DNA of 64,000 nucleotides from Dehalococcoidia bacterium (GTDB taxonomy: Bacteria; Chloroflexota; Dehalococcoidia; UBA6926), in NCBI GenBank assembly GCA_965207895.1, contig CBDBNN010000003.1:451755-515754 (forward strand), read 5' to 3'. Positions 3,393-31,088 of this stretch are shown piece by piece. A program made the translations under genes and the position numbers. The notes beneath the pieces were generated by a model that was given only the letters and a program-made list of their open reading frames with translations, was not told where the DNA came from and did not search any database. Position 1 is the first letter of the stretch. Each line of letters starts with the position of its first letter.

Positions 3393-3498
3393 TAAGCCGC
3401 TCGCCCTGAGCCTGTCGAAGGGCGGCCCCCTGCCCGTCATTCTGGCCGTAGGCCAGAATCTGATGCGCATTGTGCGGCTAAATCTGCCCTAATAAGCC
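3388..3498. repeat. ~100-bp segment bounded by 11-bp direct repeats (cctaataagcc) between two convergent genes, containing a 9-bp perfect hairpin
   Basis: cctaataagcc at 3388-3398 and 3488-3498. Each copy overlaps a stop codon (plus-strand gene and minus-strand gene). Internal cattctggcc gta ggccagaat inverted repeat. Confidence 0.4.
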
Positions 3499-4031
3499 AA
3501 ACTCGTTAGCGGCAGGATTTCAGCCGCTGCTTGACTGTCCTCGATGGTGAGGATTCCGACGTGGCCCGGCTCGCGGATGTTGCGTGGCAGGGCCGGACTG
3601 CCCGGGTTGACGATCAGTACTCCTGATTCCGTGCGCTCCACGTGAGCGACGTGCGTGTCGCCGCACACGATCACGTTCACCGGCCCGCCGAAATTGCGCT
3701 CCATCAGTGCCTCTGTCGTGATCCACGGCGTTTCTGCCGGCAGCGGGAACCCGTGAATAAGACCGACGCTGACTCCCTCTGCCTCCACGACGTGGGCGTG
3801 TTTGACGCGGGGATCATCGTCCGGGAACGGCGGTCGAAACCCGTCGCCGTCGCCATTGCCCCGCGCGCCAATGACAGGCGCGATAACTTCCAGCCAATCC
3901 AGAACGTCGATGATGTGCATATCGCCGCCATGCATGACCATGTCGACGCCGGCAAGCAGATCGAACACCTCGCCGGGCATTCGCTCCCCGGCCTCCGGCA
4001 CGTGTGTGTCTGAAATCAGGCCGATGCGCAT
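3489..4031 (-). CDS. YfcE/MJ0936-type metallophosphoesterase
   Basis: MRIGLISDTHVP ... GGDMHI ... IVCGDTHV metal-ligand motifs of the calcineurin-like phosphoesterase fold. Confidence 0.75.
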   Translation of the reverse strand: MRIGLISDTHVPEAGERMPGEVFDLLAGVDMVMHGGDMHIIDVLDWLEVIAPVIGARGNGDGDGFRPPFPDDDPRVKHAHVVEAEGVSVGLIHGFPLPAETPWITTEALMERNFGGPVNVIVCGDTHVAHVERTESGVLIVNPGSPALPRNIREPGHVGILTIEDSQAAAEILPLTSLAY

Positions 4032-12916: not shown

Positions 12917-12946
12917 GCGAAGCGGGATATAGAGTGGCGTCGCGGT

Positions 12947-14563
12947 CAGTCGGAGTTTGGCGATGCGATACGCGGCGTTTGAGTCTCTTGTTTGGCAATC
13001 GACACTACATCCTCGGTCGGGATGGCCAAGGTCAGTTCGACGTTGTTGCTCCCGTCGATGGTGGCCCCGTCCAGGAGCAGCCCCAGCGCCTCCTTGCGCT
13101 CCTCGTCGGTCAGGTCGTCAAGCCTGCCGCCGAGCCGGTGTGCCCACTCGACGATGTGCTCGCCCAGCGCCCGCTTCTCCGCCTCGGCCATCTCCCTGGC
13201 TCGGTAGTCGTCCAGCTTCAGCCGGAGCGTCTCCAGCCGTTCAGTGATGAACTTGCGCTGGCGGTCGAGCTGCTTCTCGGTGATCTTCCCCGACACGTAG
13301 AGCCTTATGGCCCGGTCCTCCTCCAACTGCACCTTTTGCAACTCCCGCTCCGCAATGGCGATCTCCTCGACCAGCTCGCCGTTGTCCGCCCGCGAGTCCA
13401 TGGCCTCGATGCCGGCGACGATGACGCCGGGGTTCTCCAGCACCTTCTTGACCTCGCCCCAGACAAGCGCCTCAAGCCGCTCGGCCCTGATGTTGGGACG
13501 CTCCCGGCATTGCACGCCCTCATTCTCCATTCCGTAGCACCGGTAGTAGCGGCGGGGGGTGTCCAGGTCGTAGATGTAAGCCTTGCCCTTTCGCCTGGAG
13601 GTCTGGCGTCTCGTCCCACGGCAGCCCATGAGGTACCCGCACTCGGCGCACCTGACCAGGTGCTGCAAGAGATAGAAGAGCTTGGTGTTGCGGCCCGAAC
13701 GGGTCAGACGCTTCTTCTTGGTCTCCTGCGCCAGGTCCCATATCTCCTCGTCCACCACCGGGGGGAAGGGCACCTCGACCCACTCGTCCTCGGGTCGGTC
13801 GTACCGCCTCATCCCGTTCTCGGTGGCGACGTGGCGGCGCTTGCCGAAATACCAGGTGCCCTTGTATGCCTCGGTGCGTAGGATGCGGGTGACTATGGCG
13901 TCGTACCAGGGACCGACGGCCCTGGGCGTGGGGACGCCCTCGGCATTCAACTGCTTGGCGATGGCCGGAGCGCCCATGTCTTCGCGGACGTACATGCGGA
14001 AGACGCGGCGTACGACCTCGGCCTCCTTCTCCACGATCTCCGGCCTGCGGTTCTCGCTGAGTTCGTAGCCGTAGGGGACGTTGTTGACAGGGATGCGGCC
14101 CTGCTTGGCCGAGCCCCGCTTGCCCATCGAGGCCCTCTCCCGGAAGTTGTCCAGCTCGATCTTGCCGATGGCCGCCATCAGGCCGAAGGTCTTCATGTCG
14201 ATGGCGTCAAGGACAGCTTCCAGTTCTATCTGGTACGCCTCGACGACCTCCATGAGAGCGGCTGCGGGGTACATGCCCCGGCTGAGCCGGTCGGACTTCC
14301 AGCAGACGATGGTGTCGAAACGTCCCTGGCGGGCGTCGGCCAGCATCCGCTGGAACTCCGGGCGGTTCTTGGACCATCCTCTGCCCACCTCCTGGTAGCG
14401 CGCGGTAATGGTCAGTCCCCTGCGCTCGCAGTGGGCCTCCATGTCGCTGATCTGCTCGGAGATGGAGGTCTTGTCCTCCGTGTCCTGGCTCTTGTCCGAG
14501 ACGCGGGCGTAGATGGCCGCCCGTTTCGTTCCCGTCTGCCTATCGGTGGTACTCGTCGCCATG
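12947..14563 (-). CDS. large serine recombinase (phage-type serine integrase)
   Basis: N-terminal resolvase domain with catalytic AAIYARVSDKSQ, a recombinase domain, a Cys-rich zinc-ribbon region (CAECGYL...C...C) and a coiled-coil C-terminus. Start set to ATG MATSTTDRQ with AGGAGG 6 nt upstream. The longer track ORF is read-through. Confidence 0.9.
12991..13010. repeat. left copy of terminal imperfect inverted repeat (candidate att half-site)
   Basis: 16/20 match to the reverse complement of 31288-31307. Confidence 0.4.
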
Positions 14564-14590: not shown

Positions 14591-14622
14591 AAGAAGACCC
14601 GCCTCCTGTCGGGAGCGGGTCT
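14591..14622 (-). promoter_or_regulatory. stem-loop followed by a T-tract immediately upstream of the integrase RBS (terminator/attenuator-like)
   Basis: Minus strand reads gacccgctcccgacaggaggcgggtc then cttctttatttc, then the RBS and ATG of the integrase. Confidence 0.35.
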
Positions 14623-14900
14623 GCGAGTAGTACAATCACTTCGCATCACCTGTTCCCGCAGGTGGCGCCACGGCCCGGGGTGTTTGCAGCACCGCCGGGT
14701 CAACTTCTATCTGCCCTCCATTTTACCGCGCTGGGCTGGAGGGAGTCAAAACGCGTCACCGGTCGGTGCTGCCTCCATTTGAATTGCTGACGCCAATCCC
14801 AGATTACCGACTAGACGCCGGTGAACCATGTCAACGGTCTTGGTGGCAGGTATTTCAGCCGAGCCTAGGTGCCGCCAATGGGTTCGGCGGGAACCGTCAT

Positions 14901-15188
14901 TTACCAGATCCGATACCAGCCGGGGCTGACCACGGACATGATCCCCATGACGAGGATTGCAGCCATGGTAAGGACCCCAACGGCCCAGGCCGCCCCCAGG
15001 TCCCCGCTCAATCGCCACGTGGCCAGGAATGTCAAAGCGCCGCCAAGGACAGCCCAGGGGAGGACGCCGCTCTCAATGATCCATATGGCGATCAGAATGG
15101 CAGAGACTAGACCCGCTCCGACGAGCAGATATGCAGCCGCCAAGTTATCGGTCCCAGCGCTGCTTCGGGCTGAACGCCGTCGCCCCAT
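14901..15188 (-). CDS. small two-TM membrane protein
   Basis: Strong RBS AAGGGAGG 7 nt upstream of the ATG. Two hydrophobic helices (LAAAYLLVGAGLVSAILIAIWII, VGVLTMAAILVMGIMSVV). Confidence 0.45.
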   Translation of the reverse strand: MGRRRSARSSAGTDNLAAAYLLVGAGLVSAILIAIWIIESGVLPWAVLGGALTFLATWRLSGDLGAAWAVGVLTMAAILVMGIMSVVSPGWYRIW

Positions 15189-15383
15189 GCCCGTGCCTCC
15201 CTTTTTGAGATAGAATATCAGAGTTTTCTATCGGCACCAAGACCTTCTTGGTCCGAGTTTGGCACCCCTGGTCCACGATAGGGACTTCAAGAACTCCTTC
15301 AGGTCAGTGGAGGAAGCAGCACCTCCGCTGACAGAGGCGGAAAGCCCGTAGACCCTACCCTCCGCTCCTTACGGTGCGTTCGT

Positions 15384-16589
15384 TCACTCCTCCCGGTCGT
15401 TTCCCGAGAGTGCGCCTCGCAGCTCTATCGCCTGCCGCGTCCGGTCGAGTTCCGCGGCTAGGATCGTCTCCTCTGGCAGGGTGATGCGGTACTCCCCGGC
15501 CATGACGTTGTTGGGCAGGCCGTCGAGGGCGTACCGCGCCAACGCCTCGTCCTTCTCGGAGCAGAGGATGAGTCCCACGGGCGGGTTCTCGCCCTCTCGA
15601 ACCCAGTGCTCCCGCGCGTAGTTCAGGTAGAGGTGCATCTGTCCGGCGTCGGCGTGGGTGAACGCCCCGATCTTCAGGTCGATGACCACGAGACACCGCA
15701 GACCACGGTGGTAGAAGAGCAGGTCCACCCTGTACCACCTGTTGCCGATGCGCAGGCGCCTCTGCCTGCCCATGAAGCAGAAGTCGTCCCCCAGCTCCAT
15801 GAGAAAGGTCTCCAGGTGGCGGATGAGCGCGTCTTCAAGATCGCTCTCGGAGTACTCGTCCTTGAGGCCGAGGAACTCCAGGACGAAGGGGTCCTTGATC
15901 TGCTCCTGGGGCAGCACGGCGTCTTCGGCATTGGGCTTCCGTCCCGACGTGAGCATGGCAGCCTTGTTCTTGGACAGGGCGGTGCGCTCGTAGAACTGGG
16001 AGGCGATCTGTCGGTCTAGCTGACGGACCGACCACCCTCCCCTCAGCGCCTCCGTCTCGTAGAACTCGCGGGCCTGCTCGTCCCTGACCGACAGCAGCCT
16101 CACGTAGGCCGACCAGGGCAACGGGAAGGCTGACAGCAGGTCTTCGAAGCCTACGCCGTCCGATGCGGTCATGAATTCTCCCGACGCCGTCGAGAGAATC
16201 CTCTGTCGATGGGATGAAGCCGATTTTCCCGACACTGTCGGGAGAATCCGGTCAGACGGGAACGAGAGGTAGAAGAGACGCATCTTGTAGATGCCCTGGA
16301 GGGAGAAGCCCCGACCGAACCTTCCGGTCAGGTCCTCAGCCAGTCTCTCGATGAGCGCCGCCCCGTACTCGGCCCGCTCCTCTCCCGACTGCTCGAACTC
16401 GACGATGCGACGTCCTATCAGCCAGTACGCGGCGGTCATGGCGGCGTTCACCGACCGAGCGGCAGAGTCTCTGGCCGCGTCGATGATTCTCGACACGTCT
16501 CCGAAGACAGCCTCGTACGGGGCGTCGTGACTGAGGGTTGAACGCCTCAGTGATGGCTGATTGCGGTTGGGGGACATCTCGGATGGCAT
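15384..16589 (-). CDS. DUF1016 (YhcG/RhuM-like) PDDEXK-fold nuclease family protein
   Basis: C-terminal block RVDLLFYHRGLRCLVVIDLKIGAFTHADAGQMHLYLNY matches the restriction-endonuclease-like core of DUF1016 proteins (D...D/E-x-K arrangement: DLLFY ... IDLK). Confidence 0.75.
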   Translation of the reverse strand: MPSEMSPNRNQPSLRRSTLSHDAPYEAVFGDVSRIIDAARDSAARSVNAAMTAAYWLIGRRIVEFEQSGEERAEYGAALIERLAEDLTGRFGRGFSLQGIYKMRLFYLSFPSDRILPTVSGKSASSHRQRILSTASGEFMTASDGVGFEDLLSAFPLPWSAYVRLLSVRDEQAREFYETEALRGGWSVRQLDRQIASQFYERTALSKNKAAMLTSGRKPNAEDAVLPQEQIKDPFVLEFLGLKDEYSESDLEDALIRHLETFLMELGDDFCFMGRQRRLRIGNRWYRVDLLFYHRGLRCLVVIDLKIGAFTHADAGQMHLYLNYAREHWVREGENPPVGLILCSEKDEALARYALDGLPNNVMAGEYRITLPEETILAAELDRTRQAIELRGALSGNDREE

Positions 16590-16813
16590 CAGGCTTCCTC
16601 CTCCAAGTGGTTGTCCACTTGGACGTCCGGGAGCGCGTCCTTCTCGGACTCCGCTTGCCCGTCGCCGGCCGAGGGCCTGAGCAGCAGGGTGAAGAGACGG
16701 AGCAGCCGGTCCTCGGCGTCGGGTGCGGGCCTGGAGATGACCCTCACCTCCCCAAACTCCGAGAAGTCCTCTTCGGGCATCCGTCGCACTTTCGGTCTCC
16801 TCTTGTCGTTCAT
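16589..16813 (-). CDS. small ORF (73 aa, MNDKRRPKVRRMPEEDF...) translationally coupled to the DUF1016 nuclease
   Basis: Its TGA stop overlaps the ATG of the nuclease (TGATG). A diverged paralogous copy at about 18310-18095 lacks a stop, so that copy is decayed. Substitutions between the copies are enriched at third codon positions in this frame. Confidence 0.3.
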   Translation of the reverse strand: MNDKRRPKVRRMPEEDFSEFGEVRVISRPAPDAEDRLLRLFTLLLRPSAGDGQAESEKDALPDVQVDNHLEEEA

Positions 16814-17060
16814 CGTTCTCTTCGCCGGGCTCTCGTGAGCCCGCACCGGGCTGTCAATGTCGGCGGATCGCAGCCCTCGCCAGAGAGTGTGAACAACTCG
16901 AACGCCGAAAAAGACCTCACGCGTGGTGGCGCCACGGAAGGTCGCCAACGAACAAGCCTCTTCGCGCAGTATTGGGGGTGTACAGGAAATGGAGTTTGGT
17001 GACGAAGTGGCCTGAGTCGTGATTTCGTAGCTGAATCAGGGGCAAATCGCCCTCTACAGG
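16596..17060. repeat. copy A of a diverged ~450-bp duplication
   Basis: Aligns by eye to 18096-18560 at roughly 70-80% identity. Both copies end in gtga(t/g)ttcgtagctgaatcagg ... ctctacagg. Confidence 0.6.
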
Positions 17061-18095
17061 AGGTGGTCGGCGAGCAATCTGTTGAAAGGGTGGAGTTCGG
17101 TCGGCAATGACAAAAGCAGGCTTGAGGTGGGGGTGCATGACGCGGCCCAAATCGGCGGCCCGATGACAAAAGCGGCCAAAAGATGCGCTTGAGGTGGGGG
17201 TGCGTTACACCGGGCGAGACATCGCAAGAAACGCGGACCTGGTGGAAGGCAAAGCTGAAACGAGTTTGCGGGGAAGCAGGAAACTGCCATAGAGACGACC
17301 CAACACGGCCTCTAGGACAGCAAAGACCTGGAGCACATGTACCCCATGAGGCCCGGTCAGCTGGCACCACGCGGCGCTTTACGACACGCAGAGAGCGCGG
17401 GGCAGAAGCGAGGTTGCGTCCAGGGTGTGGCGGGCGCTCACGCAGAGGTGGTTGTGGCGGTAGTTGTGGAGCAATACGTTGCCCAAGGTCGCGCTGGAGC
17501 AATATCCGGGGTGGGGGCACGCATGGGGTCTTCTTGGTCTCGCAGATCGGTGATAATGACCTCACTGTTTGGCTTTCTCCAAGGTTTCCGACCACAGAAA
17601 CCTGGGTGCGTGATCCCTGTTGCACGGGCTTCGCCCAAGAGGGAATGCTGGCGATGCGGAGTTTGACGTTGGTCCTCCGCAACCAGCGCGGGCCGGATCG
17701 ACGGAGTTGACGCAGGGGCCTCCGTTTTCGGTCCAGTCCAGCGGGTTGGAGTTTGACGTTGGTCCTCCACTCGAAGGACATCTGCCTGACGTTCGGCGTT
17801 GATCGCTCCCTCCGTTGGGCACCGGTCTGACGGCTGGGGTTGATCGCCTCGCAGTCTGACCAGGGGGACGACGTGTTAGCGCATCGTCCCCGGCAAACTG
17901 GCCAAAGTGCGCCTGTCGCTTTGGCCAGTTCAGCACGTCTGCGGGATGGCTGGAACGCAGCCGCACCGCAGCTTCCGCACGCAGTTGATGGGGTGCGGTC
18001 CTGGCTGAGGGTTGACCGCCTCGCCGGAGACAGATGACGTTCGGATGCCAATGCTAAGTTGGAATTGACCCACCCCGATAGCGGGCGCATTGGGC

Positions 18096-18560
18096 TTCTG
18101 CCTCCAGGTGGTTGTCCACGAGTCGGTGATCCGAGGGCGGGTCCTTCTGGGACTTCCGCCTGCCTCTCCTCGTCCGTGGGCCTGAGCGGCAGGATGAAGA
18201 GGCGGCGCAGCCGGCCCTCGGCGTCGGGGGCAAGCCTGGAGATGACCCTGACCACGCCGCATTCGGAGAATCCCTCCTCGTGTATCCGTTGTCCGCTCCG
18301 TCTGCTCCTGTCGTTCATCACTCTCTTCACCGGGCTCGCGTGAGCCCCAAAAGGGCTATCAATGTCGGTCTGAATGCCATTGAGTCTGGGGAGCCGAGGG
18401 GCGAAAAAACACGGTCCGTGAGGGGGGCGCTCGCGGGATGCTCCCTCACGAGGTCTCCATCCCAAATGGCCGGATGTGATGTACTACCCGTGTACAAGGA
18501 AATGCGCCGGTTGCATAAATGCAAGTCGGTGGTGAGTTCGTAGCTGAATCAGGTTGGAGT
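18096..18560. repeat. copy B of the diverged ~450-bp duplication
   Basis: See copy A. Confidence 0.6.
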
Positions 18561-18775
18561 GGAGGGGTGTGGGGCCGTTGTTGCGAGCACTTCGAGATAA
18601 GGGCGGGTTCACCCGATTTGGGCGGAAGTTGCAGAAATGCAAGTCGGAAAAGCGGAACAGCGGAGCGCATCGCTGCTAAATCGGAGCGAGCGATTTGGGG
18701 AACGAGGCCTAAACCGGGCCGTGATGGCCTCTACAGGACGCCCCTATCGGACATGAACATGAGGAGGTTTGACGC

Positions 18776-19705
18776 ATGAACGAGGCAGAGTTGAACGGCA
18801 CGCGGGTTGAGGAGACCCAGGATGGCGGGAACCAGGACACCGACGTGTTGGACGATGAAACCCTGACGAGCGAAGTCGGGGACGGTGACGACGCGGACAA
18901 GGAGCGGATGCGGCGGCACAGGTTGAGGGGGTTCCTGCGGGAGCTGGTGCGGGAGGAGGGCCGGATGGAGGCTGCGGAACTACTGGGCGTTGCCTACCGC
19001 ACGCTGGTCAAGGCCGAGGAGACCGGCGAGATCACGGGACGCATGGGCGACGCCATCGAACGGCTGTCGAGCGCGGGCGACAGCCCGGAGGTGAAGCGGC
19101 TCAGGGAGTCGGTCGGAATGGTCGAGGAACGCATGGCCGCGTTGGAATCCGGCATGGGGGCGCTGGGGAAGGAGCTCCGGGACGGACTGGACAAGTTGCG
19201 CATTGCGGCGGCCGGCAAGTCCGATGCCGAGGGCGGCGGCGAGGAAGGGACCCAAGCGGAGGACGCGGGTGAGAAGAAGGCGGGCCGGTCGGAGACCGGG
19301 GCCGCACCTCCGGTGGCGGGCCTGCGCCCCAAAAAGCCCTTCAGGGAGCGGCGCAAGGAGCCCGAGGTGGTCACGGTGAAGCCTGCCGACGACGACCGGG
19401 AGGTCTACGGCAAAGCCTGGCCGCTCATCGAGGAGTGGCGCAGCCTGCGGACAGGTCACCCCAATGAAGGCAAGAGCCTGTCGTGGCTCACGACGCATGA
19501 GCGGCTGCTCGTGCTGGAACTGGCGATGCTGGAGGAGCACGGGCTGACCCTGCCGCCGGAGAAGCAGGCGCTCAGGGGGTTCGGGCGCAGTGGCCAGACC
19601 ACCTGGCGGTGGACGGCGCTGGCGGACACGAGGAAGTCCCTGGCAAGGCGGGAACTGCTGCGCTGGGTGCGCCGGGTCCTCACCGTGGGACTGTGGCGGG
19701 AGTAG
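18776..19705 (+). CDS. hypothetical DNA-binding protein with putative HTH and coiled-coil/charged regions
   Basis: Strong RBS GAGGAGG before the ATG. Segment AAELLGVAYRTLVKAEETGEI resembles an HTH. Flanked on both sides by related repeats (gctgctaaa ... cggagcgag(c/t)gatt). Confidence 0.55.
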   Translation: MNEAELNGTRVEETQDGGNQDTDVLDDETLTSEVGDGDDADKERMRRHRLRGFLRELVREEGRMEAAELLGVAYRTLVKAEETGEITGRMGDAIERLSSAGDSPEVKRLRESVGMVEERMAALESGMGALGKELRDGLDKLRIAAAGKSDAEGGGEEGTQAEDAGEKKAGRSETGAAPPVAGLRPKKPFRERRKEPEVVTVKPADDDREVYGKAWPLIEEWRSLRTGHPNEGKSLSWLTTHERLLVLELAMLEEHGLTLPPEKQALRGFGRSGQTTWRWTALADTRKSLARRELLRWVRRVLTVGLWRE

Positions 19706-19931
19706 GCCCCGGAGCCTGCCTTCGGGGCCGGTTTTCGGCGGCTGCTAAAGCGCAGCGACATGGGCGCTAACTCGGAGCGAGTGATTCACGCTGGGTTGAC
19801 CTGAAACCCCTTCCGAAGCCTTCCATTGCCTGTCCGACCAGGCGATAATTGACGCAGTTTCTGGCTTTTCCAGCGTTTCGTGCCGAGAAACCTGGAGGGT
19901 TCCCGTCCCCCGAATCCGGGACCGGCTGCAT

Positions 19932-20080
19932 AGGATCGAGCCTCGCTCTCCGAACAGCCGCCCAGGGGTCAGACCGGAAGGATTGAGCCTCGCTCTCCCG
20001 ATGGTCTCCCCGGAGGGACAAACGCCTTCCCGCTGCGTGAGCCGGTCGAGGGGTCGAGCCGTTGCTCCTCCGATGCCGTC
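19932..20080. repeat. three imperfect ~30-bp direct repeats (iteron-like) upstream of the 4xHTH gene
   Basis: ggatcgagcctcgctctccgaacagccgcc / ggattgagcctcgctctcccgatggtctcc / gggtcgagccgttgctcctccgatgccgtc at about 50-70 bp spacing. Confidence 0.5.
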
Positions 20081-20749
20081 TCGGAAGTCGGGACACCACC
20101 GTAGCGAGTACGGTGCAGACTCTCGCCGAGGTGCGCCCAGCGTCCCGGCCATTCCTCATGCCTGCGGCGCAAACGTCACGCGGTTGGGTCGCAGCTTCAA
20201 CGCACGCCGTCCTGCTATGACTCCGCATGGCTGCGTCGCTCTCACGGCACCGGTCTCGGACCGATCTGCAGGCCGGACGCATTTCCTCTCACAGCAGCTC
20301 CCCGGTCCGCATCCCCGTGATATGACCCTGGACGAGCTGCGTTTTTCTCACCCCACTTCGTCCCCGCGTCCGGCATCCGACCGTGGGCGAAGTGCGTCTT
20401 GCGTCAAACGAACCCATCACACACACAACCCGCGCCCCGGATGCCGCGCGGGTCAGCAACATCAATATCAAGGAGGTGCACATGCACGTTGAGTAGTTAG
20501 TAGGCGAGACCAAGGGCGCCGGAGTCGGCATTGACGGCTTCACGCCCCCGCCTCTCGCACACAAGGCCCCCATAACAGTTGGCGAGCAAAGGGCCGCTTC
20601 TTCCTCCGCGCGAGGAAGGGTGGCCCTTCTCTTTGCCAGCAACGAACCCACGGAGACGGTCCCGGCTGCCGGGACATCAATTCGAGCGGGACTGTCTCCG
20701 CCCCACGGGGTGGCGGCCGTCCCGCTTCTTCATTGAAAGGAGAAGCGAC

Positions 20750-21907
20750 ATGACGACGGCAACCACACCAACGACCAATCGGCAGAACACGACGGAGACA
20801 ACGACGGATGCGGCAACGCCCGTTGAGGCCATGGGCAAGCCTGAGAGCGAACTCAGGGCGGTGGCCAGGAAGAAGGGCCTCACCATGAGGGAGCTTGCGG
20901 CCCTGATGGGCGTGAGCGCCAGCCACCTCTCCCAGGTCGGCACGGGCAAGAAGCCCTGGACCCCCAACCTGCGGGAGAAGGCGATGGCTGTGCTGGGCGA
21001 GGTCCCAGGACAGGGCTTCGTCTACCGACAGCGCGGCGAGGTCAATTCGGAGAGCAGCTACATCCGGGAGCAGGCACGGACGATGGGCTACACCATGCGG
21101 GAACTCTCCGACCGGTCGGGGGTGAGCTACTCCTACCTCACCCAGGTGGCCCGTGGCCGCCGCAACATGGGCGTCAAGGTGCAGGCCAGCATCGAATCGG
21201 CTCTTGGGGTGGCGGCCAGGGTCGCTCCGGCCAAGCTCGCCAACCGTCAGGGCGAGGTGGTCGAAGGGACGGACAGCAGCTTCATCCGGGAGACCGCCCG
21301 CGCCCTCGGCATCACCATGCGGGAGCTGGCCGAGAAGGTGGGCGTGTCCGCCGGGTACCTGTCCCAGGTGTCACGCGGGCACAGGAGCATGGGCGTGAAG
21401 CTTCAGGCTCGGGTCGAGGCTGTGCTTGGAGGGCGTGCGAAGGTCGCTTCCGCCCAGTGCCCCGACATCGACCGCCAGTTCATCTGGGAGCAGATGGACG
21501 CGCTAAACGTCAGCCAGAACGAGGTCGCGAGGCGGGCGGGCATCAGCTCCGGTCACCTCTCCCAGATCATGAACGGCCAGCGCAGCCCGTCCGCCGTGGT
21601 CATCAGAAAGCTGCACGGGGCGCTGTTCCGGCGCAGCCAAGACCCGCAGCGGGTGATGCCCGTTGCCATGAAGGTCCTGGGCTGGAAGAAGGGTGAGCGC
21701 AGCGGGATGGTGGTGCACGGCGCCCGTGGCCGGGACGGCACTGCCAGGGGCGGCGCGGTGCGCGTCGGCGGCCGGGTGCCCTGGGGCGCGAAGGTGGAGT
21801 ACGCCTTCCGCGCCGGGTACGACGGCAGGGGCAAGGTGTCGGTGGACCACGTGGTGGCGCCGAGCTGCTCCGCCCTGTTGATGCGGCCGGAGCCTACGAC
21901 CGCTTAA
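20750..21907 (+). CDS. protein with four tandem XRE-type helix-turn-helix domains
   Basis: Four repeats of the pattern (L/Y/I)TMRELAxxxGVSxxYLSQVxRGxR(S/N)M. RBS AAAGGAGAAG before the ATG at 20750. Gly/Arg-rich C-terminus. Confidence 0.75.
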   Translation: MTTATTPTTNRQNTTETTTDAATPVEAMGKPESELRAVARKKGLTMRELAALMGVSASHLSQVGTGKKPWTPNLREKAMAVLGEVPGQGFVYRQRGEVNSESSYIREQARTMGYTMRELSDRSGVSYSYLTQVARGRRNMGVKVQASIESALGVAARVAPAKLANRQGEVVEGTDSSFIRETARALGITMRELAEKVGVSAGYLSQVSRGHRSMGVKLQARVEAVLGGRAKVASAQCPDIDRQFIWEQMDALNVSQNEVARRAGISSGHLSQIMNGQRSPSAVVIRKLHGALFRRSQDPQRVMPVAMKVLGWKKGERSGMVVHGARGRDGTARGGAVRVGGRVPWGAKVEYAFRAGYDGRGKVSVDHVVAPSCSALLMRPEPTTA

Positions 21908-22274: not shown

Positions 22275-23003
22275 TCACAGGGGCAGCGACTCTCCGCTCT
22301 CCCGAAGATGCTGGCGACGCCGCTGCGCGTCCGGCATCACCGAAGCAATGAGTGTCCAGAACTCCGGTGAGTGGTCCCGGTGGGTCAGGTGCGCCAATTC
22401 GTGGACGACGACGTATTCCATCAGCGCCGGTTTCACCATCATGGCGCGCCAGTTGAAGCGCAGCGTCCCGTCGGGCGCGCAACTTCCCCAACGCTGACGC
22501 TGGTCGCGCACCAGCACACGAATCCTATCTCCATGTCCAAGCCGCGGCGTCCACCGTTCGACGACCTCTTCAAGTCTCTCTTGGGCGCGCGAGCGGTACC
22601 AGCGCACTACTGCTCGGCGGATCGACTCGTAGCGTTCATCGCCGCTCAGTCCCTTCGGGGCGGCGACCCGGAACCTCCAGTGATCGAAGCGGACTTCCGC
22701 CCTGCGCACGTCTGCGTCCTCCACAACCATGCGGACGTTGCGGCCCAGATAGGGTAGCGTCTCCCCGCTCACGAAGCGCTTGGGGGCGGTTTCCAGCATC
22801 CGGTCCGAGGCGTGACTCAGTATCCAGCCAGCCCGCTTCCGCACAATGGCGCGCAATTCGTTGACGGGCGTGGTCGTCGGCGCGACGACCTGCACCCCGC
22901 CGCCATCCACCGTGATCTGGACGGTCTTCCTGCGCCGACTGCTGCGTCGCACCTCGTAGTCGATGCTGGTATCGCCGAAGCGTACACGGCCCTCCTCGGT
23001 CAC
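22275..23003 (-). CDS. DUF45/YgjP-like zinc metallopeptidase (WLM/SprT-like)
   Basis: HELAHLTHRDHSPEFW zinc-binding motif. GTG start overlaps the hsdR stop (GTGA). This family is commonly linked to Type I R-M loci. Confidence 0.8.
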   Translation of the reverse strand: MTEEGRVRFGDTSIDYEVRRSSRRRKTVQITVDGGGVQVVAPTTTPVNELRAIVRKRAGWILSHASDRMLETAPKRFVSGETLPYLGRNVRMVVEDADVRRAEVRFDHWRFRVAAPKGLSGDERYESIRRAVVRWYRSRAQERLEEVVERWTPRLGHGDRIRVLVRDQRQRWGSCAPDGTLRFNWRAMMVKPALMEYVVVHELAHLTHRDHSPEFWTLIASVMPDAQRRRQHLRESGESLPL

Positions 23004-26000
23004 TGCCCGCTCCGGCGGCTGGCAAGCTCGACTATCCGGCTGGCCAACTCCTCCAGCTGGTCTTCGGTGTAGTCGCCCTTGGGTCTGAGTTCGCGCTTGA
23101 TGTCCCGGCGCATCAGCCGCCTGACATCCTCGTTCACATGCCAATCCACGACCCTGCTGCGCTGGGCGACGACCGACTCGATCCTCAGGGCAACGCTCCT
23201 GGCCTCCTCATCTATCTGAACGTGGTAAACGCCCTGCTCCTCTGCGATGTGCCGGGGAGGAACCTCTCCATTCTCCGGGCGTCTTTCCAGCAGCGCGTAG
23301 ATGGCGAAGGAGGTGGGTGAGAGACCGAACTCCGCCGCGATGTCGGCCTCGCTTCGCATCCGTCCCCGCACCTCAGCGTAGCGCCGGCACGCCTCGGCAG
23401 CGTCTATCACCCTGTTGCGCAGATCGTCGATGATGCGGGCCAGCTGTTCGGACAAGCGCTCGTAGAATGCGGGATTGTCTCCCAGACTCTCGTGGATCTG
23501 GGAGCGGATGGCGTGCTCCATGATGGACGCCCGCGCCTCGTCGTGGGGCAGGGCGGCGATCTTCTGGTCGAAGTCCCGGTCGAGGATGGACACCGGCCGC
23601 ATCATCTCCCGCACCTGGGCGCTGATGCGCTCGTCCACCAGCTTCTTCACCTTGGCCCCAATCTCCGTCCAGTCGATGTCGGCGTCCTCGCGAAGGAATT
23701 GGGCGCGCACGTAGGCGCGTATCTCCGTGAGCCGCGCCAGCCGGTCCGTGTAGTCCAGCGCGCGCGGGTCCGGCAGGAATCGGTCCATGAGACGGGAGAA
23801 ACCCCGGTAGTCGGCGTTGAACCGCTCGAATACGTGAGCCTTGAGGTTGCCCTCGGTGCTGGCGTCGGGCGCGAAGACGCTGACGCACGCCCAGGTGTCG
23901 CTCAGGTCCCGGCCCTTGAAGTGTGACTCGGCCTGGACGGCCGCGGCCTCGACGACCGACGCCGGGTCCTCGTCCATCTCCTGCATCGTGCCCTGCACAT
24001 CCGACCAGTCGAATGTTGAAAGAACGTCTTCGAGGTCCCGAGATACGCCGTGGTAGTCCACGACCAAGCCGTGGGTCTTTTCGGTCTCCGCCCCGTCCTT
24101 TCTATGCGAGAACCGGCGGTTGACCCTCGCAACGGCCTGAAGCAGCCCGTGCTCCCGCAGCGCTCTATCCAGGTAGAGCACCTGCTCCACGGGCGCGTCG
24201 AACCCGGTCAGCAGCATGTCCACCACGACCAGCACCTCCGGCTCGCCCTCCGGATCGACGAAGGCGCTTTCGACCTGTCCCTGGTCGAGTTCGCGCGCCG
24301 CCTTGAACTCCGGCCCGTCGTTTGGGGCTGTGGTGATGATGGGATAGGCGCTGAGGCCGAAATCCTTCAGTCGGCTGGCGTACCGGAGGGCGGCTACCCG
24401 GCTGGGCGCAACCACCTGGGCCTTGAACCCGTTGGGGCGAATCTTCGCCTTGAAATGCTCGGCGATGTCTAGGGCGATCATCTCGATGCGTCGCTCCGCC
24501 TCAGCCACCGTCTCTTTGTTGGCGTAGCGTCGGCGAATCTGCGCTTGGACAGCGGGCGGCTCGTCGCCGAACATGGCATCGTAGAGCTTGTCCAGGGTCT
24601 CCGGCCCCTCGATGGCAAGCTCGGGCAGGCGCGCCTCGTAGAAGATGGGCACCGTCGCGCCGTCGGCCACCGACTGGGGGATGGTGTAGGTGTCGATGAG
24701 CGAGCCAAAGCGCCCTATGGTGTTGCGCTTGAAGCCCTTCTCTATGGGCGTTCCGGTGAACCCGATGAGCGCCGCGTTGGGCAGCGCTTTGGAGAGCCGT
24801 CCCCCGAGGATGCCGTACTGCGTGCGGTGCGCCTCGTCCACCATGACGATGACGTTCTCCGAGGCGTTGAGCACGTCAAGCTCGCCCTCGGGGGTCGTCA
24901 GCGCCTCCTCGAACTTCTGGATGGTCGTCATGATCGTGCGGCCCGCGCCCGTGGTGAGCAGACGACGCAGGTCCCGGCTGGTCGCCGCCCGCTCCGGCGC
25001 AGGGAAGCCGCAACGCTCGAAGGTGCCGGTGATCTGCCGGTCCAGTTGCGTGCGGTCGGTCACCACGACAATCGTGGGATTGCCCAGACGAGGCTCCCGA
25101 CGCAGCCTCGTCGCCAACCACAGCATGGTCAGGGACTTGCCCGAACCCTGCGTGTGCCAGACCACGCCGCCCCGTTCCTCCGGCTTCAGGCCGGTGAGCA
25201 ATCGCTCCAACCCAGCGCGAACCGTGCGGTACTGCTGGTAGCGTGGCAGCTTCTTAACCACACGTCCCCGCTCCGGCTCATAGACCACATAGTCGCGGAG
25301 GATGTCCAGCAGGGTTGCGGGAGGCAGCAGGCCGACGATGAGCTGGGCCTGCCCCTGGGGTTCGACCCCGTACCTCTGCCTCACGTCGTCCTCGGAATGG
25401 CTCCCAAGCCATTTCCACTCGAAGTAGGCGTTCTCCGGCGCGCCGATGGAGGCGTACGCGGCAGCGGCCCCGCAGTGTGCGACGCACAGCAGGTTGTAAT
25501 GGAAGAGCTCGGGAGCGCCGCTCCCGCGCCACTCCGGCCCTGCCTCCTGGTAACGTCGCAACTGCCGCACCGCGTTGGTCTTCCACACGTCCAACAAGGA
25601 AGGCGACTTCGCCTCCATCACCACTAGGGGGATGCCGTTGACGAACAGCACGATGTCGGGAATGACCATGCGTTCGTCGTCCTCGGCGCCGCCTCTCTCG
25701 TTGGCGCGGCGGACGCGGAACTGGGTGGTGACGACGTACTCGTTGAGTCCGCCTTCAGGATGGTCGAAGTCGAAGAAACGAACGATCCGCGAATCCCTGC
25801 CCTGCGGCCCGTCAACGGTCAAGGGCTTGCCATAGGTCAGATACTCGTGGACCGCCTGGTTGCGGCCCATGCCGGTGGCGTCGATGTGCTCAAGGTCGAA
25901 GATGACCCGCCCGGCCTGGGCCTCGGTCATCCATTCGTTCAGACGAAGCAGGGCCGCTCTCAGGCGCCCCTTCAAGAGCACCTCCCGCTCGTCGCCTCGC

Positions 26001-26131
26001 TCCGCCGCCAGCGCCTCGCGCGGCACGTAGGTCCAACCCAGCTTCTCCAGCAAGCGCCTCGCTGGGTCCTCGGCGTGGTTGAATTCGTTGAGCTTGGAGG
26101 GTGTGGTCATAGGACTCCTAGCTACCCTCAT
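23000..26131 (-). CDS. hsdR: Type I restriction enzyme R subunit
   Basis: N-terminal nuclease motif (PDIVLFVNGIPLVVMEAK), SF2 helicase motifs (WHTQGSGKSLTM; VIVMVDEAHRTQ) and a long C-terminal domain. The start may be the internal MTTPSKL (about 26110). Confidence 0.95.
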   Translation of the reverse strand: MRVARSPMTTPSKLNEFNHAEDPARRLLEKLGWTYVPREALAAERGDEREVLLKGRLRAALLRLNEWMTEAQAGRVIFDLEHIDATGMGRNQAVHEYLTYGKPLTVDGPQGRDSRIVRFFDFDHPEGGLNEYVVTTQFRVRRANERGGAEDDERMVIPDIVLFVNGIPLVVMEAKSPSLLDVWKTNAVRQLRRYQEAGPEWRGSGAPELFHYNLLCVAHCGAAAAYASIGAPENAYFEWKWLGSHSEDDVRQRYGVEPQGQAQLIVGLLPPATLLDILRDYVVYEPERGRVVKKLPRYQQYRTVRAGLERLLTGLKPEERGGVVWHTQGSGKSLTMLWLATRLRREPRLGNPTIVVVTDRTQLDRQITGTFERCGFPAPERAATSRDLRRLLTTGAGRTIMTTIQKFEEALTTPEGELDVLNASENVIVMVDEAHRTQYGILGGRLSKALPNAALIGFTGTPIEKGFKRNTIGRFGSLIDTYTIPQSVADGATVPIFYEARLPELAIEGPETLDKLYDAMFGDEPPAVQAQIRRRYANKETVAEAERRIEMIALDIAEHFKAKIRPNGFKAQVVAPSRVAALRYASRLKDFGLSAYPIITTAPNDGPEFKAARELDQGQVESAFVDPEGEPEVLVVVDMLLTGFDAPVEQVLYLDRALREHGLLQAVARVNRRFSHRKDGAETEKTHGLVVDYHGVSRDLEDVLSTFDWSDVQGTMQEMDEDPASVVEAAAVQAESHFKGRDLSDTWACVSVFAPDASTEGNLKAHVFERFNADYRGFSRLMDRFLPDPRALDYTDRLARLTEIRAYVRAQFLREDADIDWTEIGAKVKKLVDERISAQVREMMRPVSILDRDFDQKIAALPHDEARASIMEHAIRSQIHESLGDNPAFYERLSEQLARIIDDLRNRVIDAAEACRRYAEVRGRMRSEADIAAEFGLSPTSFAIYALLERRPENGEVPPRHIAEEQGVYHVQIDEEARSVALRIESVVAQRSRVVDWHVNEDVRRLMRRDIKRELRPKGDYTEDQLEELASRIVELASRRSGQ

Positions 26132-27086
26132 CGAAAGTAGTTGAACTCCAATGACTGGCTACCCTAAGCACGTAATCGGCACAGATTATGGCATTCAGGG
26201 CTTGCCTGCTTGTATTGTATGCAGCAAAACCGTGACTAGCCGCATGGCGATTCGGTGTCGGACTGTGCCTGATTTCTTCCAGGTTCTCGCTCTCCACCCG
26301 AGCGTAGAGTTCGTGCATGATGTATTTGATGACGACCCACTCGTGGCGACCATCCCAGATCAAATTTCTAAACGGTGTATGACCTACTCGCTCCTGGATT
26401 TCTCCGTACTGCCCGCTCTTCGTTCCTTCGATACCGAGCAAGTCCTCACGAATCACTTTCTCGATTAGAGGCAATACTCCGTAACAGGCTGAGCGAAAAT
26501 AACCTAGCCTATAGACCTCCAACGCTTCACGGACCGCGCTCTTGTCTTCGTCATCTACTGAGTAATCCGATAAGCGCGTGGATATGTCTTCAACTATCTC
26601 GCTTGTACATTCACTGTAATACCGGTCTACGAGGTCGCTGAACGTGCTCTCGTCGTAACTTGAGTCGTCCAAGAACTGTGCAAACGGAACAGTTCTATAT
26701 GGGAGCCATCCGGTGGTTGTGCTTGCCTCTTCCATTCGTTGTTCAAATGCAAATGGATTGGGAAGCTTCAGCACGTCCAACGAGGGGAGCCAGGTGTTTG
26801 GCTGCAAGGTAATCTGGGTTATCTCTGATATGGCCCCCAATTGTTGTGTCAACAGGTGAGCCATAAGGGAAGTCATGCGACTCTGGTCAAGGATCGACTG
26901 TAGACCGCTCGTCATGTGTGCCAACGAGCTTTGCCATCTACCCAATTGCCCTTCCATGATACTGGCCTGAATCTTGAAGGAGTCATCCCACAGCTTGCTG
27001 AATGACGCTGTTATCTGATTCATATCGCTCATCACGTGACGCAGGTCCTCATGGGAGGTACCGCGAACATCATCTTCAGTGCTCAT
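26118..27086 (-). CDS. hypothetical protein on an AT-richer segment inside the R-M operon; possible HEPN-like (R-x4-H) protein
   Basis: Clean 322-codon ORF with 14-nt and 4-nt overlaps with neighbours. C-terminal NRHAASHG fits the Rx4-6H HEPN signature. Composition is clearly AT-richer than hsdS/hsdR. Confidence 0.6.
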   Translation of the reverse strand: MSTEDDVRGTSHEDLRHVMSDMNQITASFSKLWDDSFKIQASIMEGQLGRWQSSLAHMTSGLQSILDQSRMTSLMAHLLTQQLGAISEITQITLQPNTWLPSLDVLKLPNPFAFEQRMEEASTTTGWLPYRTVPFAQFLDDSSYDESTFSDLVDRYYSECTSEIVEDISTRLSDYSVDDEDKSAVREALEVYRLGYFRSACYGVLPLIEKVIREDLLGIEGTKSGQYGEIQERVGHTPFRNLIWDGRHEWVVIKYIMHELYARVESENLEEIRHSPTPNRHAASHGFAAYNTSRQALNAIICADYVLRVASHWSSTTFDEGS

Positions 27087-28351
27087 AGCTGCTTTGCCGC
27101 CGTCCTTCCATGCATACGAACGCGACCCGTCAGCAGCGCCTCTGACGCCGATCCCTTCAGTGCTTGCAGCCTTTCCCGCTCCTCGTGCCCCTGCTCAATG
27201 GCCGAGTCTACGCCAGTCAGCACTGAGGCGATGGTCTGCTGCTCTCGCAACGCCGGAAGTGGAATCGAAAGAGAGTTTGTAGCACCCAGCGTCAGGCCAA
27301 AGCGAGTGACTCCATTGGCGATGCGAGCAAACCGGCTTGCCGTCCGTGGAGACCCTAGTAGCTCAGCCAGATACGCGCCATCGGCTAGCTCCATGCGCGG
27401 TCGTGCCAATCCCAGGTGATAGCCACACAGGACTGTTGGCATATCCGCAGTCACATAGGCGGGAATCCCGATTTCATCTGGCGTTTCCGAGTCCTTCGTG
27501 AAGAGAACGTCGTTCTTCCGCAACGCCCATCGGTCACACTCAACCGGGCTAGCGGTCGCAGCCATAAAGCGCATTCCAGGTCGGATTCGGCGACTGTAGA
27601 AGACATCCGTGTAGTTGCAGAGTTCAACCGGAACCTCGCCGTCCACGGTTCTCTTATCGACGCTACTGAAAGCTACCTCCGTCACATCCCCCAGCCGTAC
27701 CACCTCCCAGTTCGCCGGTATCGTCCCGATGCCCGGCGCTTCCTTCCACTCTGTGTGCCAGCCGGGGACACCGCGGGTGAGGAGTTCGTGTAGTAGAGAG
27801 TCGCGCAGTTGCTCGGTGGCGGCGATGGCTGCATCCGTCCTCTCGATTGCTTCATCGATGCCGTCCAGCACGGCGGCGATGGCCCGCTGTTCGGGTAGTG
27901 GGGGGAGTAGGATGGGGAGATTGCGCAAGTGTGTCCAGGATGTTCTTGGCATCTTGGTCCCACCGACTCCACGCATCGCGTATTCATAGGTCTGGTCGCC
28001 ACGAAGCAAGTGACTGAGAAAGGAACTGTCTGCCTCGCTGCCACCGAATATGGCGAGGATGTCGGTCGAGCAAACGCCGTCAAACTGTGCTCGAATCACT
28101 TTTCTCAGGTTTGGACGAAGCTTCCCGTAAAGCGTGTCACCCTCTCGGAAGAGAGTCTTGTTGCTGATCGACTCTCCCGCTCTTCCGTACCCGTTCAAAG
28201 CCCCCTCAGCAATGATGTGTTCAAGGGCAATGTAAGGCCGGTGATCGTGTTTCGTGGGTTTGACTTGCTCCATGCGGAGATTCGCCACATCCCCCAACTG
28301 CACTACCTGCCAGCCGTCGGGTATCGTCCCATTGTCTCCTGAACGTCCCAT
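27083..28351 (-). CDS. hsdS: Type I restriction specificity subunit (two TRDs)
   Basis: Two target-recognition domains each followed by the conserved L-x-x-L-P-x-L-x-E-Q-x-x-I block (LPPLPEQRAIAAVL; LPALREQQTIASVL). Confidence 0.9.
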   Translation of the reverse strand: MGRSGDNGTIPDGWQVVQLGDVANLRMEQVKPTKHDHRPYIALEHIIAEGALNGYGRAGESISNKTLFREGDTLYGKLRPNLRKVIRAQFDGVCSTDILAIFGGSEADSSFLSHLLRGDQTYEYAMRGVGGTKMPRTSWTHLRNLPILLPPLPEQRAIAAVLDGIDEAIERTDAAIAATEQLRDSLLHELLTRGVPGWHTEWKEAPGIGTIPANWEVVRLGDVTEVAFSSVDKRTVDGEVPVELCNYTDVFYSRRIRPGMRFMAATASPVECDRWALRKNDVLFTKDSETPDEIGIPAYVTADMPTVLCGYHLGLARPRMELADGAYLAELLGSPRTASRFARIANGVTRFGLTLGATNSLSIPLPALREQQTIASVLTGVDSAIEQGHEERERLQALKGSASEALLTGRVRMHGRTAAKQL

Positions 28352-28359
28352 CGGTCTCT

Positions 28360-28710
28360 TCAGTTACCTTCGTCCGTGGGCGGGCGTATCTCGTGGATGG
28401 TCACCGGAAGTCCTGCCCGCTTAGCTTCCAGCCAGCGTTTGAAGGAACGCTGGCTTTCTCCGGAGGGCCATCCTCCCAACAGCATTTCCACGCTGATGTC
28501 CTCATCCAGGGCAGGCCAGTGGATGCCCTCGCCAGCGCCTATCAGCCGCCAGTTGTGGCGTTCCTCAGGCGTGGCGTGGATGAGCCTGGGATACCAGGAC
28601 AGTGGCACCGACACGGTCCGCCCGTCGGAGAGCTCTGCGGTCAGGGTATCGTCGGTCACCTCGACCGTCATGGCCTCCGGCACACTCACCTTAAGCGTTG
28701 AAACGTTCAT
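28360..28710 (-). CDS. DUF2442 family protein
   Basis: Size and sequence pattern of DUF2442. Overlaps the DUF4160 gene by 20 nt, the usual pairing. Confidence 0.65.
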   Translation of the reverse strand: MNVSTLKVSVPEAMTVEVTDDTLTAELSDGRTVSVPLSWYPRLIHATPEERHNWRLIGAGEGIHWPALDEDISVEMLLGGWPSGESQRSFKRWLEAKRAGLPVTIHEIRPPTDEGN

Positions 28711-28927
28711 TCCAAGCCTCCAGAAACGAATTCTGATTTTCCTCGACTATCTTCTCGATGCGGCGTATCTCATGCCGCCTCAATCCGCCTGTCTGTTGAA
28801 GCCTGACCGGCTCCAGCCAAAACTTGGCGATGCGGTCATCGCGTTCGACGTGAATGTGGGGAGGCTCTCCCCGGTCGCTCGCGTAGAAGAAGAACCGGTA
28901 CGGCCCCTCCCTCAGTATGACCGGCAT
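28691..28927 (-). CDS. DUF4160 family protein
   Basis: MPVILREGPYRFFFYASDRGEPPHIHVE is the hallmark N-terminus of DUF4160. Confidence 0.7.
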   Translation of the reverse strand: MPVILREGPYRFFFYASDRGEPPHIHVERDDRIAKFWLEPVRLQQTGGLRRHEIRRIEKIVEENQNSFLEAWNERFNA

Positions 28928-28942
28928 GGTCCACCAAGCCTC

Positions 28943-30469: not shown

Positions 30470-31088
30470 CTAGCGCCTCTCCCATTGATGTGTATACGGC
30501 CCTGCGGCCGATGTCATGGATTACGGAGTCCCTAAGTGTCTCGCGTCGCAGGCGGGCGACCTCGACCGCCGCAACGTAGGCATCCTCGGACACCTCCACG
30601 AGTCTGGCCACTGCATCAAGCTCTCCGTCGGACAGTAATGGAATCTCGATCTCTCCCAAGCTACGTGCGGATAGAGTCGTCACCGTGGCGTTGACCACCA
30701 GCCGCTTGGCGAGTTGCGCTCGGCCCTGGGAGGAAGTGAGGAAATACCAGAGCCAGTGTCCCAAGCCGGATTCGGGTCGCTTGGGCCGCACCACCAGCAA
30801 GGTTACACCTGCAACCGTACGCGACACGCCGGGTGGCACAAGCGCGGTCTGAAGCGACCCTGCGCGGGCCGTCACCAGTATGTCGAAGGGTCTCAGCAGG
30901 TGGCGCTCGGTGCGCAGGGTGCGCACGACTCCCACTTCCCGAAGACCGTGTGATTCCAGCCAACCGTCGTCACGCAGGTCGCCGCTCTCGACGATGCGGA
31001 GCATCCAGTCGCCGCGTTGCGATCCGGCCCCGCGTCCAGCTTGGGCGAGGCCCTGGTGTACATGGGCGAGGTCTGCAACACATGCCAT
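30456..31088 (-). CDS. HsdS-like protein with a single target-recognition domain (half-S)
   Basis: FDILVTARAGSL ... VVRPK ... WLWYFLTS ... IEIPLLSDGELDAVARLVE follows the TRD plus conserved-linker pattern of HsdS. It is only about 210 aa and overlaps the hsdM start. Confidence 0.5.
   Translation of the reverse strand: MACVADLAHVHQGLAQAGRGAGSQRGDWMLRIVESGDLRDDGWLESHGLREVGVVRTLRTERHLLRPFDILVTARAGSLQTALVPPGVSRTVAGVTLLVVRPKRPESGLGHWLWYFLTSSQGRAQLAKRLVVNATVTTLSARSLGEIEIPLLSDGELDAVARLVEVSEDAYVAAVEVARLRRETLRDSVIHDIGRRAVYTSMGEALVATH

Follow-up and report, generated by a model that had tools for sequence, protein, structure and literature searches.

Integrative islands and prophage-like elements that are driven by large serine recombinases include SPbeta, the skin element of Bacillus subtilis, and the ccr cassettes of SCCmec. 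A locus with clear resemblance to these elements is found in a 64,000-nucleotide stretch of a Dehalococcoidia bacterium genome (GenBank assembly GCA_965207895.1, contig CBDBNN010000003.1, positions 451,755 to 515,754; hereafter referred to as the window, in whose numbering coordinates are given). All read from the minus strand, a conserved leader, a small open reading frame (ORF) of 74 codons, a gene for a DUF1016/YhcG nuclease, and a large serine recombinase gene follow one another. As an integrative island, the locus is of an ordinary, known type, equipped with defence-type cargo and one uncharacterised small gene. We read the region as the recombinase end of an integrative island of Dehalococcoidia composed of a leader, a ~75-aa gene, a cargo slot, and a serine recombinase, in which the small gene would serve the integrase and a second, damaged copy of leader and small gene would be the scar of two elements joined in tandem; a rough probability of 0.6 is assigned to this reading. 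The element shares with the serine-recombinase islands a protein with Resolvase, Recombinase, and zinc-ribbon recombinase domains at its very edge, the use of specific target genes for insertion (the recombinase ORF continues through the junction), defence cargo, and the occurrence of several copies per genome. In contrast to SPbeta-type elements, phage structural genes are absent from its neighbourhood and IMG/VR contains no match to it, and its hosts, unlike those of SPbeta, skin, and SCCmec, are uncultured Dehalococcoidia. We know of no description of a conserved ~75-aa orphan gene with a conserved leader of 0.6-0.9 kb in front of the recombinase in elements of the SPbeta, skin, or SCCmec type.

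Two further groups of described systems bear on the locus. Large serine integrases have directionality factors, exemplified by SprB of SPbeta, Xis of phiRv1, and Orf7 of TP901-1 (PMC12286644). Their identification is difficult, although genome engineering with integrases has a demand for them, and an orphan family of small proteins that is tightly tied to one clade of large serine recombinases constitutes a concrete candidate for directionality or excision control. DUF1016/YhcG nucleases, in turn, have been described as cargo of the Rickettsia RAGE element pLbaR (PMC4316617) and as genes embedded in Type I restriction-modification (R-M) loci (PMC9881135).

Conserved gene order around the small gene

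Overall, ~100 related loci from uncultured Dehalococcoidia form the basis for the assessment of synteny. With the window proteins as queries, 80 genome loci were scored, and 3 loci from a single 3.6-Mb contig were added to the genome-locus set. The 80 loci stem from metagenome-assembled genomes (MAGs) of Dehalococcoidia/Chloroflexota, with the exception of one 2.3-kb contig binned as Acidobacteriota (locus L027, JAPPFQ010000315.1); this contig bears a small-ORF/DUF1016 locus, and its bin is probably an error rather than a sign of transfer between phyla. A search seeded with the recombinase contributed 17 metagenome loci, 13 of which include upstream sequence.

The small gene is syntenic with the recombinase and not with the nuclease. 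A large serine recombinase is encoded downstream of the small ORF in 63 of the 80 genome loci; between the two, a full-length DUF1016 gene is present in 27 of these loci, a partial one in 4, and none in the remaining 32. Among the recombinase-seeded metagenome loci with upstream sequence, the small ORF lies directly upstream of the recombinase in every case (13/13), and a DUF1016 gene in none (0/13). In nuclease-free loci, small ORF and recombinase are often separated by a mere 56-150 bp. In the recurrent layout, a divergently transcribed gene for a 309-aa protein (p309) is followed by the leader and the small ORF; then comes a stretch of variable content, and the large serine recombinase gene marks the edge of the element. 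As an occupant of the slot between small gene and integrase, DUF1016 has several counterparts: a PAPS-reductase-like gene or a Phd/YefM gene can take its place, and further genes may come after DUF1016.

In the window, the recombinase gene (12946-14562, minus strand) is the terminal gene of the integrative element. It encodes 538 aa counted from M48 of a 585-aa ORF, a start inferred from orthologs that begin with MATRTTDR... or MTMRTTER..., and its Resolvase, Recombinase, and Zn_ribbon_recom domains all score over the Pfam cut-offs, with a match to a PHROG integrase at 1.4e-102. The intact small ORF, copy A (16589-16813, minus strand, 74 aa, MNDKRR...HLEEEA), belongs to an orphan family; upstream of it, non-coding leader A (16814-17112, minus strand) contains conserved islands that are common to the leaders of other loci.

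In a related locus, L004 (OZ242299.1), the element recurs with 97.8% identity between window positions 24813 and 15361, both copies of leader and small gene and the spacer between them included. L004 is devoid of a 610-bp segment (14751-15360) that is located in the window exactly between nuclease and recombinase, and at this junction identity falls to 90%, the recombinase of L004 being 89.8% identical to that of the window. Similarity ends at 12973, where a different chromosomal flank begins, so that one element end is placed at ~12973. In other loci, recombinase ORFs run across the element end into recurrent target genes, which suggests that sub-lineages of the element insert at particular genes. 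Taken as a group, the loci represent a multi-copy, mosaic island family of uncultured Dehalococcoidia with a defined cargo slot and tandem-joining scars.

A candidate excision-control factor

A tentative role for the small protein, which we put at less than even odds, would be that of a recombination directionality factor or regulator of excision that acts on the recombinase or on the latter's expression. A conserved beta-strand and an amphipathic helix (VRVIS...DAEDRLRRLFTLLL) would fold upon binding to a partner, preferably the integrase, and the basic N-terminus and the acidic tail would stay disordered. Since known directionality factors possess no common fold and bind the DBD2/coiled-coil junction of the integrase by helices and/or strands (PMC12286644), such a role is plausible. 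The small protein resembles these factors in its size (~60-75 aa), in the lack of a conserved family, and in being encoded on the same element as the integrase—as in the 63 genome loci and all 13 recombinase-seeded loci mentioned above—which is a necessary, though not a sufficient, property of a directionality factor. Its putative strand-plus-helix is of the kind predicted to bind the DBD2/coiled-coil junction. A more specific version, according to which the ~75-aa protein is the cognate excision factor of a large and unexplored clade of serine integrases of uncultured, largely sponge-associated Dehalococcoidia, with fixed synteny upstream of the integrase and a cargo slot in between, appears somewhat more doubtful still. 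If true, the motif PDAxDRLRRLFTLL would give dozens of ready integrase/factor pairs, and the architecture of the islands would place the expression of defence cargo, DUF1016 included, under an excision switch.

Several points weigh against this role and the reading of the island built on it. Binding of the recombinase by the small protein is a conjecture, and none of the solved chains resembles the protein in sequence. Apart from one confidently predicted helix at residues 33-45, confidence in the AlphaFold2 model is low (mean pLDDT 60). Directionality factors are described as mostly not syntenic with the integrase gene (PMC12286644), whereas the small gene is strictly so. The divergence of the small ORF tracks that of the nuclease (Mantel r = 0.55) about as well as that of the recombinase (0.49-0.52; 0.49 in the nuclease-bearing subset), with nuclease and recombinase correlating at 0.37; values this close provide no specific co-evolution signal and do not discriminate between the roles. 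The small ORFs of the window and of L004 share 99% identity, their recombinases only 90%. The recombinase has, furthermore, its own conserved upstream region with a promoter-like site and may not share an operon with the small ORF. This site (TTGACT-18-TAAAAT, 14720-14749, minus strand; a consensus match only) is the single promoter-like match obtained in a promoter/terminator scan, in which terminators occurred at chance level, and is situated inside a ~140-bp stretch with 83-90% identity in many loci. The stretch is in another reading frame than the recombinase body, which marks its conservation as non-coding. Finally, the mapping of the element's boundaries covers one end, at ~12973.

The main alternative is a Cro/Xis-like DNA-binding switch that would act on palindromes in the leader without contacting the recombinase, and would control, within a divergent leader of ~600-900 bp, transcription of the cargo/integrase side versus the p309/HTH side. 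On one side of a long conserved divergent region, the small ORF indeed comes first, and this region is non-coding, as its similarity between loci is equal in all six frames and interrupted by indels. Operator-like repeats are present. The motif CCTGTACACGGGTA recurs in the leaders of most loci, ~180 nt and ~660 nt upstream of the small-ORF ATG, often in two copies per leader that are ~480-490 bp apart (e.g., at 4343 and 4822 in L001, and at 7331 and 7822 in L031); in the window it is found at 18483-18500. Such a pair looks like a set of candidate operator sites for divergent promoters. A G+C-rich palindrome, GGGAGGAC-TCGCGA-GTCCTCCC, occurs ~110-140 nt upstream of the small ORF (L001, L002, L013, L017, L029, and others), and at the equivalent place in front of window copy A (~16925-16945) the sequence reads GTGGCGCCAC. 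By eye, the palindrome has compensatory variants between loci (GGGGGGCAC...GTGCCCCCC and AAAGGGAGGA...TCCTCCCTTT), and it could be a hairpin or the binding site of a dimeric protein. The basic N-terminus of the small protein, and the small ORF's own weak ribosome-binding site behind a conserved hairpin, would also suit a switch. On the other hand, neither a helix-turn-helix (HTH), a ribbon-helix-helix, nor a winged helix is predicted in the single-helix small protein, which matches no DNA-binding family; its invariant part is the strand-helix core and not the basic N-terminus, which is variable; and the part of regulator could already be filled by a multi-HTH protein and p309. We consider a pure DNA-binding switch rather unlikely.

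Searches for structured RNA in this region were negative. Rfam returned nothing on 14600-20700 except for a chance microRNA match (E = 0.88), and RNAalifold found no convincing consensus among 17 leaders (-8 kcal/mol, covariation ~0) and did not pick up the G+C-rich palindrome. Genes of 197-263 aa that have been called in the leaders of L001-L003 are spurious, given the equal similarity in all six frames, the indels, and the stops that window copy B has in the frame of these genes.

The DUF1016 nuclease as cargo

The initial annotation had described a DUF1016 nuclease whose start overlaps the stop of the small ORF, and this is correct: a 401-aa ORF (15384-16589, minus strand) bears both Pfam domains of PD-(D/E)XK nucleases of this kind, DUF1016_N (PF17761, 6e-41, 140 bits versus a cut-off of 32.8) and YhcG_C (PF06250, 2e-56, 191 bits versus a cut-off of 32.5). 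The additional label 'RhuM-like' finds no support, as only DUF1016/YhcG models match. Residues 22-391 match the PADLOC model PDLC04807 of PDC-S02 (E = 1.6e-134), which PADLOC treats as a single-gene phage-defence candidate. From the general PD-(D/E)XK pattern, VDL288 and DLK304, both within the YhcG_C match, are the predicted catalytic D...(D/E)xK residues. Constraint on the nuclease (dN/dS 0.20) exceeds that on the small ORF.

The nuclease is ordinary stand-alone cargo on an integrative island. It is similar to the DUF1016 cargo of PDC-S02, pLbaR, and R-M loci in its two Pfam domains, its intact D...(D/E)xK motif, its status as a stand-alone gene, and its location on a mobile element beside a Type I R-M system. 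Homologs with ~60% identity are found on three plasmids (of Pseudomonas and Leptolyngbya), with no relative of the small ORF nearby. Two of the plasmids, pTTS12 (L086, NZ_CP009975.1, 1308-3670) and pBYT1-1 (L084, ~1900-3649), belong to Pseudomonas, and here the DUF1016 gene overlaps the stop of an upstream tyrosine integrase gene; in pBYT1-1 the latter is missing from the plasmid's gene table and is deduced from sequence common with pTTS12. Thus, the position of DUF1016 beside a site-specific recombinase recurs across phyla and recombinase classes, although the window's gene, in contrast to the plasmid genes, occupies a slot between the small gene and a serine integrase. In yet another related locus (L038, 8228-10704), a DUF1016 gene is split by a ~1.3-kb insertion between codons 337 and 338.

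In the initial annotation, the small ORF was taken for a coupled partner dedicated to the nuclease. Such a partner could inhibit the nuclease like an antitoxin, activate it, or serve as its specificity subunit, and a two-gene defence or addiction module would follow if this were true; the evidence argues against it, and we regard such a partnership as improbable. The arrangement in itself is suggestive. As in type II toxin-antitoxin systems, a small upstream ORF ends within the start of a potentially harmful enzyme, the TGA of copy A overlapping the nuclease ATG by 1 nt (TGATG). The small ORF recurs immediately upstream of DUF1016 genes elsewhere: a full-length nuclease comes next in 35 of the 80 genome loci, usually with the same 1-nt overlap, and an overlap or a gap of <=12 nt is conserved in most nuclease-bearing loci. 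An outcome that would have spoken against the annotation, no conservation beside DUF1016 genes in other genomes, is therefore not what is seen. The slightly higher correlation of small-ORF divergence with the nuclease than with the recombinase in the nuclease-bearing subset points in the same direction, and the acidic disordered tail could conceivably mimic DNA.

The overlap, however, has another explanation. The last codons of the small ORF, GGAGGAGGAA, contain the Shine-Dalgarno sequence of the nuclease (the end of the small ORF reads GGAGGAGGAAGCCTGATG), and the nuclease is predicted to be translated from this strong site of its own. The TGATG junction arises from this embedding, which likewise accounts for the conserved C-terminal LE(A/E)EA of the small protein. 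Moreover, the two genes do not always occur together. The 32 genome loci and 13 metagenome loci described above combine small ORF and recombinase without a nuclease, and the small ORF outlives the nuclease, remaining intact where the latter is decayed or truncated (L015, L035, L047, L049), just as other cargo can take the slot. In L062 and L068, another gene stands between small ORF and nuclease. Conversely, the second copy in L033 has an intact 425-aa DUF1016 gene and a recombinase without a small ORF, and the plasmid nucleases lack it as well. In terms of numbers, ~170 small-ORF clusters face at least 8000 DUF1016 homologs, a lower bound, and PADLOC lists DUF1016 as a single-gene candidate. 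Unlike the components of type II toxin-antitoxin systems, each partner thus occurs by itself, the constant neighbour of the small gene is the recombinase, and the small ORF has no DNA-binding antitoxin fold or family match.

A damaged second copy of leader and small gene

A second copy of leader and small ORF is located at 18090-18775, ~1.5 kb upstream in the direction of transcription and in direct orientation. The repeated block of ~450 bp that had been reported does exist, yet the strong match is confined to 16586-16863 versus 18087-18368 (78-79% nucleotide identity over 282 bp); weaker conserved islands continue for another ~300 bp up the leader, among them one of 25 nt (17016-17040/18529-18553). 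The ~80% identity given for the two proteins is the nucleotide figure, protein identity being 62% over the first 55 codons and ~46% overall. Within these 55 codons, a recount yields 36 substitutions, 13 synonymous and 23 non-synonymous (dN/dS 0.51), in place of 6 synonymous changes among 14. Small ORF B (18090-18318, minus strand) is a pseudogene, as judged from a net frameshift of +4 nt, the change of its stop from TGA to CAA at 18090-18092, and amino-acid replacements at five positions that are invariant, or nearly so, in the family (F20C, P29L, D35G, T42I, and L44P). The loss of its stop had been recognised correctly; the loss of its nuclease, by contrast, is incomplete, for ~31 codons of the 5' end of a second DUF1016 gene remain at 17998-18090 (minus strand), evident from the window's self-repeat, with RRSTLSQD where the intact gene has RRSTLSHD. 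Leader B (18319-18775, minus strand), a conserved non-coding, putative divergent-promoter region with operator-like palindromes, is contiguous with p309 (18776-19705, plus strand, 309 aa). The gene for p309 adjoins the leader in many, though not all, related loci, and library scans gave no family assignment for the protein.

The second copy is probably the scar of two elements joined in tandem, with no local duplication involved. Copy B (leader B, the small-ORF pseudogene, and the 31 nuclease codons) would be the original neighbour of p309, whereas copy A, the nuclease, and the recombinase would derive from a second, diverged element of the same family. On the most economical account, a tandem insertion would have joined the two elements, and a subsequent deletion, reaching from the nuclease of the first element into the left part of the second, would have removed the nuclease body and the recombinase of the first.

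The designation 'decayed tandem duplicate' is apt as regards decay, but the copy probably did not arise locally, because copy A is closer to the orthologs of other genomes. An origin in place, by tandem duplication of leader, small ORF, and nuclease 5' end followed by decay, would fit the direct orientation and the 1.5-kb distance of the copies; copy A is also nominally the best match of copy B (79.5%), and fast evolution of a pseudogene could mask a sister relationship. Nevertheless, copy A has its nearest relatives in L013 (89.5%), L017 (85.6%), and L001 (85.3%), which are 6-10 percentage points nearer to it than copy B, and copy B is at ~79% from copy A and from the copies of other genomes alike. 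The collinear arrangement with p309, typical of single-copy loci, belongs to leader B and copy B and not to copy A, and the 0.9-kb spacer copies nothing in the unit. Like scars—a small ORF and a truncated nuclease upstream of an intact set—are present independently in L003 and L014, with truncation at different points (codons 65 and 101). The truncated copy of L014 is clearly of a different lineage from its neighbour: it shares 90.7% identity with L011, and the list of its ten best matches, which all exceed 73.9%, does not include the neighbouring copy, whose identity is thus below 74%. A local duplication is accordingly a poor candidate. Two reservations apply to the tandem-joining account itself: the sequence of accretion and deletion is a reconstruction rather than a demonstration, and comparison with related loci did not identify the source of the 0.9-kb spacer.

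Matches to this spacer (17113-17997) are limited to L004 and L005, in which the element recurs, and to L038, where two matching segments lie on either side of a decayed p309 homolog; a p309 pseudogene was sought in the spacer, and no coding remnant was found. A target site of the integrase inside the DUF1016 gene was considered as the cause of the truncations and rejected, since the truncation points differ (~codon 31, 65, and 101) and, in the window, the recombinase is not followed by a nuclease 3' half. The spacer includes a perfect 21-nt direct repeat, GGAGTTTGACGTTGGTCCTCC (17658-17678/17748-17768, 90 nt apart), and a 22-nt repeat (17120-17141/17187-17208, 67 nt apart), both of which occur only in this element (window, L004, L005) except that one copy of the 22-mer is also found in L038. 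In leader B, the palindromic 20-mers GTTGCATAAATGCAAGTCGG (18510-18529) and GTTGCAGAAATGCAAGTCGG (18628-18647) lie 118 nt apart near the start of p309. A 551-aa ORF that passes through copy B (16810-18465) is an artefact of G+C-rich non-coding DNA.

The small-ORF family

In a search of 5.8 billion proteins, 168 relatives of the small protein were retrieved, which are ~75 aa long and nearly all unnamed; the sole named one comes from a Chloroflexota MAG. An exhaustive profile search of 1.84 billion representatives then defined the family as 170 clusters, nearly all of them short proteins, together with a few members of ~230-290 aa in which the match is at one end. Neither Pfam, NCBIfam, PHROGs, PADLOC, nor the Protein Data Bank contains a meaningful match to the small ORF, and a scan of its alignment against IMG/VR produced no relatives. 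The ATG, the length of ~75 aa, and a 28-residue core, SEFGEVRVISRPAPDAEDRLRRLFTLLL, are kept in >100 sequences down to 37% overall identity, while the basic N-terminus and the acidic C-terminus vary between relatives. The median dN/dS amounts to 0.52 for the whole ORF and to 0.33 for the core, and third codon positions are the most variable. The suspected coding constraint is borne out by these data, and the small ORF is, on the evidence of its conservation pattern, a genuine coding gene of an orphan protein family, given the constancy of start, length, and core, a dN/dS of <1 together with a surplus of changes at third positions, and a leader in which no frame is preferred. That the repeated block is a mere non-coding leader repeat without a gene is hardly tenable, since the weak ribosome-binding site of the small ORF, the low-confidence structure prediction, and the abundance of spurious ORFs in G+C-rich DNA have to be set against conservation of start, length, and core at such distances, against dN/dS and third-position excess, and against the contrast with a neighbouring leader that is equally similar in all six frames and tolerates indels.

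Surroundings of the locus

The 610-bp segment that is missing from L004 (14751-15360, minus strand) is an additional occupant of the cargo slot and encloses a 95-aa hydrophobic, membrane-protein-like ORF (14901-15188, minus strand) without a match in Pfam. Directly after the recombinase follow the housekeeping genes cysK, lspA, rluD, and gltX. The recombinase ORFs of related loci end within recurrent flanking genes, of which one is a ResIII-like helicase gene and the other, located on the opposite strand, a small gene of resolvase type; loci with such an arrangement are L002, L007, L008, L019, L021, and L036 (3' of the recombinase), as well as L024, L026, L031-L034, L039, L048, L050, and L081-L083.

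On the other side lie the genes of a four-HTH regulator, of a YgjP-like peptidase, and of a Type I R-M system. The R-M locus (22275-31088) comprises hsdR (23000-26131), hsdS (27083-28351), and hsdM (28943-30469), along with an unassigned 322-aa gene (26118-27086) and a half-size hsdS-like gene (30456-31088). The YgjP-like metallopeptidase gene is positioned at 22275-23144, and the regulator gene (20579-21907) adjoins the R-M locus. Further along, and just before a tRNA-Arg gene (36108-36184), a stretch of lower G+C content (32299-35255; 0.52-0.55) with HNH endonuclease, ThiF-family, and DUF433 genes may represent more island cargo or the far end of the element.

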